From positions 1 through 21,924 of IMG/VR virus record IMGVR_UViG_2609459833_000005: a DNA stretch of 21,924 nt; one strand, written 5' to 3'. Numbering within the stretch: the stretch's first letter is position 1; every line of letters starts with the position of its first letter. A program made the position numbers and the translations under genes. The notes below the pieces were generated by a model. It did no database searches and was not told the DNA's origin. It saw only the letters and a program-made list of their open reading frames with translations. This document shows positions 8,824-12,176 of this stretch, piece by piece. This DNA is from a virus. Lineage: Duplodnaviria; Heunggongvirae; Uroviricota; Caudoviricetes.

Positions 8824-9114
8824 TTAACAGCTTTTGTTTGGATACTGCCTTCGTGAGTGAACTACATTTACGATCTCGATGTTAGATGCTGTTACTCGGT
8901 AAAGTATTATGTAGTTAGGATGGGTCACTATCTCACGAAGGCCTAGAGCTCTTTCGCTTGGTGGATACAGGTAAGGGTGTTCAGTAAGTGACAAAACTGA
9001 TGTTTCAATGCGTATTTTTAGTCTACGTGCAGCGGGAGGGTTTTCCTTGGCAATATAGGCTACGATCTGACGCAAATCATCACGCGCAGAAGGTAGCCAT
9101 AAAATGGGCAGCAT
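8824..9114 (-). CDS. parE: ParE/RelE-superfamily type II toxin
   Basis: 96-aa ORF with ParE-like motifs (ARDDLRQIVAYIAKENPPAARRL, YIILYRV, IEIVNVVHSRR); start overlaps the stop of the upstream 63-aa ORF. Confidence 0.8.
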   Translation of the reverse strand: MLPILWLPSARDDLRQIVAYIAKENPPAARRLKIRIETSVLSLTEHPYLYPPSERALGLREIVTHPNYIILYRVTASNIEIVNVVHSRRQYPNKSC

Positions 9115-9305
9115 TACTCACTCCTGTTCGTCGAAGCTATTTGCGCAATAAGGTTTTCCATTTCAGCCATTACTTCGTCATGCGGAATTGCAGGACGGGG
9201 GTCTGCGAGGCTTGCTGCCACTTTGGTGCGTAACCATTCGTTATAGCTGTTTTCTTGTTCGATTGTTTCAAATTCTGAAATTATCGGGGAAAGGACTGTA
9301 CTCAT
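9114..9305 (-). CDS. Small antitoxin partner of ParE (PaaA-like, 63 aa)
   Basis: 63-aa acidic ORF with strong SD gaggagg 8 nt upstream; translationally coupled to parE. Size and context match the PaaA antitoxins of three-component PaaR-PaaA-ParE systems described in E. coli O157 prophages; family assignment from memory. Confidence 0.6.
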   Translation of the reverse strand: MSTVLSPIISEFETIEQENSYNEWLRTKVAASLADPRPAIPHDEVMAEMENLIAQIASTNRSE

Positions 9306-9322: not shown

Positions 9323-9823
9323 TTAGGCGCGAAGACCTTTTTGCGCCTCTAGCCACCGCGCAACGGTTTCTTCAATTGATTCTTTTTTCTCCTTCATTTC
9401 CTTAAGCATTTTCTCTTTGTCTTCTTTTGGGAAAGCCCTGAACGTCTGGATCAAATCTCGCTCTATAGGTTCTATATTAAACGGAAGTTCGTTTTCCGAT
9501 TGTTCCATCTCTGCGGGTAAAGCGACAACATTATCCTGCTGCAGTTCTTGGGGGTACATCCTTACAATTCGTAACAAGTCTGCCATATCTGGTCTAATTG
9601 ACTCAGGCGGAACTTGTAGCAACCCAGCGAACTTGATAACAGCCTCTAGATTTAAAGGTGTCTGACCATTTAGATAATGGCTTACTGCCCCTTGTGTCGA
9701 AAAACCCAGAATTTCTGCCGCACGCTCTTGGGTTAACCCAAGTTGAGTTTTTTTCGTCGTCCAGATTTCTTTCAGTCTCTGGGCGGCTTGCAGGTCGATC
9801 TCTGACAGGGGTTTTCTTTTCAT
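9323..9823 (-). CDS. Prophage repressor / transcriptional regulator, HTH XRE-family (PaaR- or DicA-like), no autocleavage domain
   Basis: 166-aa ORF; N-terminal HTH (LGLTQERAAEILGFSTQGAVSHYLNG); C-terminus charged and helical with no S24 peptidase Ser/Lys or Ala-Gly motifs; divergent from the cro-like gene across an operator-bearing intergenic region. Confidence 0.75.
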   Translation of the reverse strand: MKRKPLSEIDLQAAQRLKEIWTTKKTQLGLTQERAAEILGFSTQGAVSHYLNGQTPLNLEAVIKFAGLLQVPPESIRPDMADLLRIVRMYPQELQQDNVVALPAEMEQSENELPFNIEPIERDLIQTFRAFPKEDKEKMLKEMKEKKESIEETVARWLEAQKGLRA

Positions 9824-9930: not shown

Positions 9931-10194
9931 ATGAATCTTGGAGAATATTTGCATCATTCCCGTATAACCCAGAAAGATTTTGCTGAAATTGTTGGGGTAA
10001 CCCAAGGGATGGTAAGCCATGTTATTACTGGACGGGCGAAACTTACGGGGGGGAAAGTTTTACGCTGGTGTGAAGCAACAGGGTGGGTAGTGACCCCGCA
10101 CGAGATTGATAGCAGTACTTACCCCAACCCAACCGATGGCATACCTGTTGACTATCAGGCTAACACACAACCCGCGCTGGGAGTTGATTCATGA
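9931..10194 (+). CDS. Cro-like HTH regulator
   Basis: 87-aa ORF with HTH (ITQKDFAEIVGVTQGMVSHVITG), first gene transcribed rightward from the operator region; SD gaggtga upstream. Confidence 0.75.
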   Translation: MNLGEYLHHSRITQKDFAEIVGVTQGMVSHVITGRAKLTGGKVLRWCEATGWVVTPHEIDSSTYPNPTDGIPVDYQANTQPALGVDS

Positions 10195-10616
10195 AAATCA
10201 AGCATGAACACATCCGCATGGCGATGAATGTCTGGGCGCATCCGGACGGCGAAAAAGTACCGGCTGCGAAAATTACCAAAGCGTATTTCGAGCTGGGAAT
10301 GACGTTCCCGGAACTGTATGACGACAGCCATCCGGAAGCCCTGGCCCGTAATACCCAGAAAATTTTCCGTTGGCTGGATAAAGACACCCCTGATGCTGTT
10401 GAAAAAATGCAGGCTCTGTTACCGGCGATCGAAAAGGCGATGCCGCCTTTGCTGGTGGCCCGTATGCGCAGTCACAGCTCTGAATATTACCGTGAGATCG
10501 TCGAACGGAGGGATCGGCTGGGGAAAGATGTGGATGATTTTGTCGCAGCGGCGATCGCCTGGGGCACCCTGACTAACAGTGGTGGTCAGCCTGGTAATGC
10601 TGTTGTCGTGCATTGA
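10191..10616 (+). CDS. YdaT-like (CII-like) protein
   Basis: 141-aa ORF beginning MKIKHEHI and ending ...AVVVH, resembling remembered Rac YdaT; located directly after cro as in Rac (racR-ydaS-ydaT). Confidence 0.5.
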   Translation: MKIKHEHIRMAMNVWAHPDGEKVPAAKITKAYFELGMTFPELYDDSHPEALARNTQKIFRWLDKDTPDAVEKMQALLPAIEKAMPPLLVARMRSHSSEYYREIVERRDRLGKDVDDFVAAAIAWGTLTNSGGQPGNAVVVH

Positions 10617-10678
10617 CCAACAATATTCATGCCGGATTTCTTCCGGATGTTCGAGGGTAAAGTTCGGTATCAGATGAG

Positions 10679-11722
10679 GTGAGTATGGCTAATGCCTGGC
10701 TCAGATTGTGGCATGACATGCCAAATGATCCCAAATGGCGAACCATTGCCAGGGTCTCAGGACAGCCAATCGCAACAGTGATGGCGGTGTATATCCACCT
10801 TCTGGTGAGTGCGTCACGAAATGTCACGACATGTCACGGCGTGTCACTACGTGGTCACATTGATGTCACGACGGAAGATTTAGCAAGTGCGCTTGATGTG
10901 ACGGAAGACGTAATTGATTCAATTTTGCATGCAATGCAGGGGCGGGTTCTGGATGGTGACCTTATTTCCGGATGGGAAAAACGTCAGGTGCTGAAAGAGG
11001 ACAATGGTAACGTTTCGCAAACGGCAAAATCCCCGGCAGAGCGCAAGAGAGCGCAGCGGGAGCGCGAAAAGCTGCGGAAATATGATGCTGATTGTCACGA
11101 TGAGTCACGACGTGTCACGCATCTGTCACGACAAGTCACGACAGATAAAGATACAGATACAGAATTAAACCCCACACATAACGCGCGCATGCGCGAGAGT
11201 GCTCCAACCGGTGAGTCGCATGGTGCGCCGTTGCAGACAGCCGAACCTGAATACCTGGACGGCCTGAGCGAACCGATCGGGAAATTTTCGATGACTACTG
11301 TCTGGCAGCCGTCGTCGGATTTTCGACAACGGGCAGCAGTGTGGGGTATGGCTCTGCCTGAGCCGGAATTTACACCTGCTGAGCTTGCCGCATTCCGGGA
11401 TTACTGGATGGCGGAGGGGAAGGTTTTCACGCAGGTTCAGTGGGAGCAGAAATTTGCCCGCCACGTGCAGCACGTCAGGGCACAGGTAAAACCAGTCAGC
11501 AAGGGGGTAAGCCATGCAGCATCAGGTGGCACGGCATCACGGGCAGTTCAGGAAATCCGGGCAGCACACGAACAGTGGGAACGTGACAACGGATTTATCA
11601 GCAACGGAAACGGCCTGGAAGCTGTGGGAGCTTATGGGGGAGGTGTATTCGAACCGCTGGACACAGAAGAACGGGGCCGCACCTTCGAAGCTCTGGATTG
11701 CCCAGATTGGCACGATGACTGA
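10679..11722 (+). CDS. Replication initiation protein (lambda O-like / YdaU-like), contains the putative phage origin iterons
   Basis: 347-aa ORF immediately upstream of a P-like gene; two clusters of GTCACGA repeats inside the coding sequence, as in lambda O/ori. Confidence 0.55.
   Translation: MSMANAWLRLWHDMPNDPKWRTIARVSGQPIATVMAVYIHLLVSASRNVTTCHGVSLRGHIDVTTEDLASALDVTEDVIDSILHAMQGRVLDGDLISGWEKRQVLKEDNGNVSQTAKSPAERKRAQREREKLRKYDADCHDESRRVTHLSRQVTTDKDTDTELNPTHNARMRESAPTGESHGAPLQTAEPEYLDGLSEPIGKFSMTTVWQPSSDFRQRAAVWGMALPEPEFTPAELAAFRDYWMAEGKVFTQVQWEQKFARHVQHVRAQVKPVSKGVSHAASGGTASRAVQEIRAAHEQWERDNGFISNGNGLEAVGAYGGGVFEPLDTEERGRTFEALDCPDWHDD
10811..10874 (+). repeat. Iteron cluster 1: six direct copies of GTCAC(G/T)(A/G) at about 10-bp spacing
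   Basis: gcGTCACGAa atGTCACGAc atGTCACGGc gtGTCACTAc gtgGTCACAt tgatGTCACGAcgg, read directly from the sequence. Confidence 0.8.
11093..11143 (+). repeat. Iteron cluster 2: five direct copies of GTCACG(A/C) at 10-11 bp spacing, followed by an AT-rich stretch (candidate ori)
   Basis: tGTCACGA tgaGTCACGAc gtGTCACGC atctGTCACGAc aaGTCACGAc, then agataaagatacagatacagaattaaa. Confidence 0.8.
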
Positions 11723-12176
11723 ACAGCAAATCCGGCTGGTCTGCCGTCAGTGCATGGACCGCTGCCGGGCGGGTGAAACGTGGCCCCCGGACCTGGCTGA
11801 GTTTGTTGCGCTGATTTCGGAGAGTGGGGCAAATCCATTTGGTCTTACGGTGGATGCAGTGATGGAAGAGTACCGGCGCTGGCGCAATGAATCCTGGCGA
11901 TACGACGGGAGTGATAAATACCCGTGGCCACAGCCTGTGCTGTACCACATCTGCCTCGAAATGCGTACCAGAGGGATTGAGCGCCAGATGACGCAGGGTG
12001 AGTTAAAACGACTTGCGGAACGGCAACTGACGAAATGGGCAAAGCATGTTGGTAACGGGATGAGTGTTCCGCCAGTGCGACGACAACTGGAAGGGGCGAA
12101 ACACCCGCAAGGGCCAACGCCAATTGAACGGCTGAAACAGGAATACGAACGCCGGAAGGCAGCTGGTTTTATTTGA
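11514..12176 (+). CDS. Lambda P-like replication protein (helicase loader); start uncertain (11514 with strong SD, or 11634, or 11715)
   Basis: Segments TMTEQQIRLVCRQ...WPPDLAEFVALI, YPWPQPVLYHICLEMR and TQGELKRLAERQL align with remembered lambda P (ITTMEQVNAGM...SPGQFVAWC, YPWKSNAHYWLVTNLYQNMR, TDAELRRKAADEL). SD agggggt 5 nt before the ATG at 11514. Confidence 0.6.
   Translation: MQHQVARHHGQFRKSGQHTNSGNVTTDLSATETAWKLWELMGEVYSNRWTQKNGAAPSKLWIAQIGTMTEQQIRLVCRQCMDRCRAGETWPPDLAEFVALISESGANPFGLTVDAVMEEYRRWRNESWRYDGSDKYPWPQPVLYHICLEMRTRGIERQMTQGELKRLAERQLTKWAKHVGNGMSVPPVRRQLEGAKHPQGPTPIERLKQEYERRKAAGFI

Follow-up and report, generated by a model that had tools for sequence, protein, structure and literature searches.

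Two arrays of GTCACG repeats as a putative split replication origin within the initiator gene of a lambdoid Escherichia coli prophage

Introduction

Iteron origins located inside the gene of their own initiator are textbook knowledge for phage lambda and for some phages of Gram-positive bacteria. Here we analyse two arrays of short direct repeats, candidate iterons of such an origin, which lie in the replication initiator gene of a virus of the class Caudoviricetes (IMG/VR record IMGVR_UViG_2609459833_000005, positions 1 to 21,924; this whole stretch of 21,924 nucleotides (nt) is called the window in what follows).

The iterons of lambda are dyad-symmetric sites of about 19 bp. The lambda origin occupies the middle of gene O, where the iterons are accompanied by an AT-rich tract on their transcription-downstream side, and in variants of Shiga toxin (Stx) phages with six iterons the extra copies add residues to the protein (PMC7466680). 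In Gram-positive hosts, the replisome organizers bind direct repeats in their own gene, which serve as origin (PMC8965321, PMC6316719). For Tuc2009 and TP901-1, both relatives of r1t, experiments have placed the origin in direct repeats of the organizer gene (PMC8965321), and SPP1 gp38 binds repeats and an AT-rich unwinding element within gene 38, as well as repeats at two distant origins, oriL and oriR (PMC6316719). Two separated clusters of one initiator-binding motif, as the window putatively has, are found in SPP1 (oriL and oriR), P4 (ori and crr), P1 (incC and incA), and F (incB and incC). In P4, the alpha protein depends on ori as well as on crr; in P1 and F, copy number is controlled by the second array.

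Two repeat arrays and an AT tract in the initiator gene

The initiator gene extends from 10685 to 11722 on the plus strand and codes for 345 aa; the first-pass annotation had read it as a 347-aa protein starting from a GTG at 10679, and the ATG at 10685 is the likelier start, matching the MAN... N-termini of the homologues. A pattern search of the plus strand finds a total of 11 cores in this gene, arranged in two groups. Array 1 (10813-10870, plus strand) consists of six direct GTCAC(G/T/A) cores at 10813, 10823, 10833, 10843, 10854, and 10865, spaced by 10, 10, 10, 11, and 11 bp; array 2 (11094-11140, plus strand) consists of five direct GTCACG cores at 11094, 11104, 11114, 11125, and 11135, spaced by 10, 10, 11, and 10 bp. 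Nine of the cores are exact GTCACG, and the remaining two are the variants GTCACT (10843) and GTCACA (10854). In addition, a single inverted copy, GTCACA on the minus strand (10897-10902), is located 33 bp downstream of the last array-1 unit. The initial description of eleven GTCACG(A) copies in the same orientation is thus right as to count and orientation, but not all copies are exact and one more, inverted, has to be added.

With Tandem Repeats Finder, arrays of period 10 are obtained at 10813-10858 and 11094-11142. Among all 5-mer clusters of the window (21.9 kb), array 1 with its six copies is the densest. When the window was simulated 200 times with a first-order Markov model, the best 5-mer cluster held 3 copies in 122 runs, 4 copies in 76, 5 copies in 2, and 6 copies in none. 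The existence of two clusters at these places, with helical-turn spacing, is therefore confirmed by pattern search, Tandem Repeats Finder, and simulation. Array 1 begins about 130 nt from the initiator start codon, within the transcribed gene, and about 230 bp separate the two arrays. We make no claim of helical phasing between them: across loci the distances cluster at 227-229 bp, and their variation is explained by added units. A CAGCA cluster at 2267-2315, flagged in the same cluster analysis, is an ordinary codon repeat, and no third GTCACG cluster, as in SPP1 oriR, is present within the window.

Array 2 is directly followed by ACAGATAAAGATACAGATACAGAATTAAA. The purine-rich AT tract found here (11141-11176, plus strand), a candidate DNA-unwinding element, is made of ACAGAT/AAAGAT hexamer repeats and then AATTAAA, and Tandem Repeats Finder identifies a period-6 repeat at 11141-11163. 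Nowhere in the gene is the AT content higher than in the 36-mers that start at 11133-11146 (69%, as compared to a gene mean of 46%), which stand at the 97.6th percentile of the window. The AT-rich stretch reported earlier after array 2 is thus real, but modest, at 67-69% AT. Among near-identical E. coli prophages, the copy number of the GATAMA hexamer in this tract (11141-11169; loci L055-L058 and L003) is variable, which alters the length of the DKD/DTD linker; the iteron arrays of the same prophages are stable.

In the light of the comparative data reported below, the two arrays are very probably sites to which the phage's own initiator binds. We consider it moderately probable that they are the iterons of an origin located inside the initiator gene and split in two, with array 2 as the core and array 1 as a cooperating platform. 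The view that they are iterons of a candidate origin, put forward in the first-pass annotation, is supported by the conservation of synonymous sites, by the co-variation of the motif with the N-terminal domain of the initiator, and by the occurrence of an AT tract after array 2 in all subfamilies.

Conservation of the repeats as DNA

Within each array the GTCAC core is read in all three frames, and for this reason SR, VT, and xH motifs appear in the encoded peptide. The location of the repeats inside a coding region, and nothing more, would speak for a repeat of the protein or for a structured RNA, and the probability of such an explanation is practically negligible: the period of 10-11 nt is not a multiple of 3, the three-frame reading of the cores rules out a protein-level repeat, and no Rfam match is obtained at E<=1 over 10400-11900.

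Synonymous sites were examined in 19 non-redundant loci from different genera, which share the layout of four units and are on average 68% identical in nucleotide sequence. The mean third-codon entropy is 0.15 bits in the array-1 GTCAC cores, as compared to 1.27 bits at other degenerate codons of invariant residues (Mann-Whitney p=3e-4). Moreover, in a logo of 170 sites the conservation is confined to the six core bases, and the flanks and spacers drift. We are dealing, then, with directly repeated short sites having a helical period and conserved at the DNA level, as iterons are. Because of the three-frame reading, the near-invariant synonymous positions, and the co-variation of the motif in both positions (see below), we conclude that the repeats are under DNA-level selection and function as DNA, not as a protein repeat.

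These data also bear on the idea that array 1 is functionless, being either the by-product of a protein constraint on the loop that it encodes or the outcome of gene conversion or slippage from array 2. The copy number of array 1 indeed varies among the relatives (six units in the window and in E. albertii, four in most others), and its site is an indel-tolerant loop. On the other hand, the synonymous core positions hardly vary among loci of about 68% nucleotide identity, the periodic layout is kept while the loop peptide differs entirely from one motif class to the next, and even at 38% protein identity the array still occupies these coordinates. A functionless array 1 is consequently very unlikely.

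Co-variation of the repeat motif with the N-terminal domain

Relatives of the initiator were collected by scanning one genome per species, which yielded 47 loci from Gamma-, Beta-, and Alphaproteobacteria, and further relatives were added from phage records. In the GTCAC class, comprising about two dozen loci, the cores stand at gene positions 129, 139, 149, and 160, the inverted copy at 193, and the cores appear again at about 387-430. Other relatives carry a different motif at both array positions, namely CGAACGC in Janthinobacterium, Massilia, Collimonas, and others, and GTAACG in Enterobacter, Pantoea, Marinobacter, and Sphingomonas. GCAACG occurs in Ralstonia phage Firinga, whose N-terminal domain is only 38% identical and whose neighbouring gene is dnaB; its array is found at the same coordinates. 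A de novo test took the most frequent 5-mer of zone 1 in each of 51 loci and counted it in zone 2: in 37 of them it appears there three times or more, and for these 37 the Poisson P of the single locus lies mostly between 1e-3 and 1e-10. The inverted copy at +193 is present in most loci of the GTCAC class and changes with the class, to GACGTGAC, GACGTTAC or GACGTTGC. Likewise, a purine-rich AT tract abuts array 2 in every motif class, being of the AGATAAAGA, AGATACAGA or AGAGAAGA type. Both arrays are also found in the isolated phages Tritos, pAEv1818, P7869, and Firinga.

The same N-terminal domain, together with the arrays, is paired with P (window), with a DnaC-like loader (Aeromonas pAEv1818), with DnaB, or with a primase-helicase. 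Since the arrays persist across these partners, and since Rac-type fusions of the same C-terminal half to a DUF1376 domain are without GTCACG, the motif, as judged from these comparisons, follows the N-terminal domain and not the C-terminal half or the partner gene. This pattern matters for the possibility that the repeats bind some other factor, such as a host protein or the upstream protein encoded at the YdaT/CII position, which might be suggested by a core of only 6 bp. Binding of this kind is highly improbable, considering that the motif changes with the N-domain subfamily across alpha-, beta-, and gammaproteobacterial hosts, which a host factor would not produce, and that the upstream genes differ among loci with the same motif.

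Composite forms of the repeats, e.g., the palindrome GTAACGTTAC, occur in both arrays of one and the same locus, and in several lineages one array-1 unit is a perfect 10-bp palindrome (GTCACGTGAC, GTAACGTTAC or GCAACGTTGC). Such units are located at gene nt 149-158 in loci L009, L011, L021, L029, and L054, at nt 161-170 in L050, and at nt 160-169 in L025 and L027, the latter two having the same palindrome in array 2 also (nt 422-431). The palindromic unit may be a dimer site, and in iteron plasmids such palindromes are the form bound by repressing dimers. They are thus consistent with a negative or autoregulatory role of array 1, according to which the initiator bound in its own 5′ coding region would block transcription of the replication operon, or else handcuffing comparable to that at P1 incA or F incC would limit initiation, with array 1 paired to array 2 or to sister copies. 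The position of array 1, which is transcribed and some 130 nt away from the start codon, the conserved inverted copy that comes after it, and its absence in some cases where array 2 is kept all point in the same direction. However, the window's own array 1 is without a close palindrome, the GTAACGTTAC-type palindromes are not specific to array 1 because array 2 has them too, and there is little obvious reason for a lytic or inducible phage to restrain its copy number. Overall, we regard a negative role of array 1, the main rival reading, as unlikely.

As for the wider distribution of the N-terminal domain, it is carried by 26 phage records, none of which is a model phage, and by only 11 plasmid records, which are mostly large plasmids or mislabelled chromosomes and include two 50.9-kb circular Pseudomonas records, probably phage genomes; as a set they are uninformative on plasmid replication. 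A different C-terminal part (YVYxV...GIS..NPW, GIY-YIG-like by eye) is joined to the N-terminal domain in two loci (L040:2501-3100 and L048:2501-3100). Their single cluster of palindromic repeats, of the (A)CTACGTAG type, occupies gene nt ~326-372, and the array-1 position has none.

Architecture of the initiator

Four segments are distinguished in the initiator, namely a winged-helix domain (aa 1-~100) similar to the N-terminal domain (NTD) of DnaD, a basic helix (aa 117-134), a disordered linker (aa ~137-192), and a domain of the DnaT type binding single-stranded DNA (ssDNA; aa ~200-270). The N-terminal fold, DnaD-NTD-like, is that of the replisome organizers. The model TIGR01714 (Phage_rep_org_N) aligns over positions 1-118 of its 119 (E=0.004), with a score of 17.3 bits that is below the cutoff of 49.8, and Phage_rep_org_N in Pfam gives no match with the N-terminal 157 aa at E<=10; close homologues carry the NCBI name 'phage replisome organizer'. 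Similarly, the DnaT-type ssDNA-binding domain is present at the C-terminal side, and the full-length DnaT equivalog NF002770 stays below its cutoff (94.9 vs 201 bits), the match being limited to model positions 82-156. The gene had been called O-like in the first-pass annotation. This holds for its position and for its partner, a homologue of lambda P, but not for its family: PF04492 (Phage_rep_O) gives no Pfam match either with the whole protein (E<=0.01) or with the N-terminal 157 aa (E<=10), and homology to lambda O is thereby ruled out.

Array 1 encodes aa 43-62, modelled with low confidence as a hairpin or loop between helix 3 and the helix-turn-helix of the N-terminal domain. Array 2 encodes aa 137-152 and, together with the AT tract, aa 137-163, which would be the start of the disordered interdomain linker. 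Since one array codes for a loop and the other for a linker, both would lie in segments tolerating arbitrary protein sequence. The two extra units of array 1 lengthen the loop of the window protein by seven residues relative to most relatives, much as the extra iterons lengthen the initiator of Stx phages. The basic helix aa 117-134, encoded immediately before array 2 (nt ~11033-11086), is the most class-specific segment outside the iteron-encoded loop, with the forms ERKRxQRERE, ERAKxWR, ERxREYR, and ERSRxxR in the different classes. It is a candidate specificity determinant, in a comparison that is confounded by phylogeny.

The mosaic joint of the N- and C-terminal modules falls inside the AT tract, where Megablast matches to other prophages start or stop at 11143-11166; in lambdoid O genes, a recombination joint is found at the equivalent mid-gene position. 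Many of the E. coli database homologues (P0001-P0047) are 'partial' proteins that end at contig edges within the initiator gene. Probably, the assembly of short reads is interrupted at this joint of the modules, which several prophages of one genome have in common.

Adjoining the AT tract there is a GC-rich palindrome, CGCGCATGCGCG (11184-11195, assigned to neither strand), which accompanies the C-terminal module of the YdaU type. In relatives from Rac, E. albertii, Serratia, and Sphingomonas, the dyad persists around a variable centre. We rejected the palindrome as a conserved origin element, the dyad being only partly kept and disrupted by deletion in O157-type variants; because six of its bases are deleted in these variants, its role is listed as uncertain. 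The region 11170-11198, which contains the palindrome and a downstream T-run on the minus strand, scores terminator-like. In a promoter and terminator scan, whose counts were near the shuffled expectation, this minus-strand hairpin was the sole standout.

Comparison with described origins

The arrangement in the window resembles that of lambda in several respects: the putative origin lies in the middle of the initiator gene, the iterons are followed by an AT tract, the gene of a P-type loader is located downstream, and the repeats are placed at the junction between the N-terminal DNA-binding module and the P-associated C-terminal module. Unlike lambda, the initiator of the window is not O-homologous and has a C-terminal ssDNA-binding domain of the DnaT type; the cores are 6 bp long on a 10-11 bp period, in contrast to the lambda iterons; and two arrays about 230 bp apart take the place of one contiguous array.

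The Gram-positive organizers (r1t ORF11, Tuc2009 Rep2009, TP901-1 ORF13, and SPP1 gp38) share with the window protein the DnaD-NTD-like fold of the N-terminal domain and differ from it in the C-terminal domain, which is Phg_2220_C or DnaB_2 instead of DnaT. Because a comparison of the window profile with r1t ORF11 by hhalign gives only 10% probability over 15 columns, homology to these organizers is argued from fold and architecture alone. At the DNA level, the r1t sequence was analysed directly for repeats. The ORF11 gene contains GGAACC four times with an 11-bp period, immediately followed by (AGATAAGAATAGATT)x3; this design of hexamer repeats plus AGATAAGA is like that of array 2 with its purine-rich tract. 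Repeat scans of the r1t gene, TP901-1, and SPP1 gene 38 reveal a single mid-gene cluster, and nothing comparable in the part coding for the N-terminal domain. Hence, the presence of two arrays, singled out as unusual in the first-pass annotation, is indeed so with respect to lambda, r1t, TP901-1, and SPP1 oriL, but not within this initiator family, in which two arrays are the rule.

With respect to the two-set systems of SPP1, P4, P1, and F, the window is different in that both arrays are contained in one gene, about 230 bp apart, with one of them interrupting the coding sequence of the DNA-binding domain, and in that the AT tract adjoins only array 2. Finally, the YdaU-type initiators of Rac (DUF1376 plus DnaT domain) share the C-terminal half of the window gene, with 86-97% nucleotide identity from the AT tract onward, and have in common with it the AT tract, the GC palindrome, and the P partner. 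They are unlike it in having a DUF1376 N-terminal domain and no GTCACG arrays. In ydaU of Rac-SA53 (L002:2900-3070), GTTCAA(A/G)C occurs twice, along with an inverted GTTTGAAC, just upstream of the common AT tract; this motif possibly represents the iterons of the Rac origin.

A working model for the origin

Most likely, array 2 and the AT tract form the core of the origin, because they reproduce the r1t/lambda-like design of repeats plus AT tract and because array 2 is seen without array 1, and not the reverse. Array 2 without array 1 is found in an uncultured phage (L051), as is the corresponding cluster of r1t, and no periodic array 1 without array 2 was seen among the related loci. Array 1 would probably be an accessory second platform, characteristic of this proteobacterial family.

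We infer initiator binding, melting of the AT tract, cooperation or looping of the arrays, and recruitment of P, which might take place as follows. Transcription from the early rightward promoter would yield the initiator and P. The N-terminal winged-helix domains of initiator monomers would bind the 6-bp GTCACG cores head-to-tail at both arrays, the core period of 10-11 bp placing these domains on one face of the helix. The nucleoprotein complex at array 2 would then melt the adjacent purine-rich AT tract, the DnaT-like domain would capture the resulting single strand, and the C-terminal region would recruit P-DnaB. Array 1 and the inverted copy would provide a second platform for the same protein, most likely cooperating with array 2, either by raising the local concentration of the initiator or through looping or wrapping of the ~230-bp spacer. 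A stricter version of this scheme, in which the origin is obligatorily bipartite and array 1 is a required looping or enhancer partner of array 2, is possible but rather doubtful. If it held, the initiator and its binding sites would be physically intertwined, and the two would be obliged to shift specificity jointly, as a single unit.

Some observations weigh against a split origin of this kind. Array 1 is absent, or the arrays are eroded, in L028, L033, L038, and L051 (a few members, from Entomomonas and Ventosimonas, have lost array 1 and retain an eroded array 2); in view of such family members, array 1 is not universally required. The co-variation of motif and N-terminal domain comes down to four motif classes, that is, to few independent evolutionary events. 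Furthermore, with 69% AT over 36 nt, the tract next to array 2 is only moderately rich in these bases. The N-terminal domain of DnaD serves mainly in oligomerisation and does not bind DNA sequence-specifically, and for this reason the basic helix aa 117-134 could be the reading head instead of the N-terminal domain. Lastly, the sequence alone fits a positive or a negative role of array 1 alike and cannot separate the two.

Full-text literature searches yielded work on lambda and Stx phages, SPP1, and the lactococcal organizers, but no description of the origin of this initiator family or of a split array; a survey of Stx-phage replication regions makes no mention of DnaT, repeats, or origins. 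What is apparently new is the bipartite form, in which one array sits among the codons of the DNA-binding domain; this form is conserved across four specificity classes. Initiators combining a replisome-organizer-like winged helix with a DnaT domain are common: the present gene is found nearly full-length in more than 650 of 5,426 complete E. coli genomes, including O157:H7 strains, and the type occurs in prophages across the Proteobacteria. Knowing their origin and specificity classes would help to predict cross-activation or interference among co-resident prophages. Moreover, array 1 can be destroyed by synonymous recoding, which would allow a clean separation-of-function experiment, and the relatives offer a natural series for the co-evolution of specificity and site where both share the same nucleotides. 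If the split origin is real, the four natural classes (GTCACG, GTAACG, CGAACGC, and GCAACG) on nearly identical protein cores would constitute a ready system for studying initiator-origin co-evolution. The proposal, relevant to prophage-rich pathogens and comparatively well supported, overturns no principle.

Genomic setting and further observations

The window corresponds to the early region of a lambdoid prophage from E. coli. A wastewater isolate matches it with 100% identity and prophages in O157:H7 strains with about 96%, and 658 of the 5,426 complete E. coli genomes match at least 80% of a 1.2-kb query consisting of the initiator gene and short flanks. The gene order is that of a cI-like repressor gene (9323-9823, minus strand), a cro-like gene (9931-10194), a YdaT-family gene at the cII position (10191-10616), the initiator gene, a lambda-P-family helicase-loader gene (11715-12176, plus strand; Pfam PF06992), and then a DUF1627 gene.

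According to the RefSeq annotation of near-identical loci, in which it encodes a 153-aa 'replication protein P', the P gene starts with an overlap of 8 nt with the initiator stop codon. The longest open reading frame (ORF) of the P homologue begins at 11514 (11514-12176); the ATG at 11715 and the RefSeq entries of near-identical loci indicate a protein of 153 aa, which is shorter than lambda P. On the other side, adjoining the cI-like repressor gene, two small ORFs of 96 and 63 aa with a 1-base overlap are present on the minus strand (8824-9305), and this pair looks, by eye, like a toxin-antitoxin system of the ParE/RelE type.

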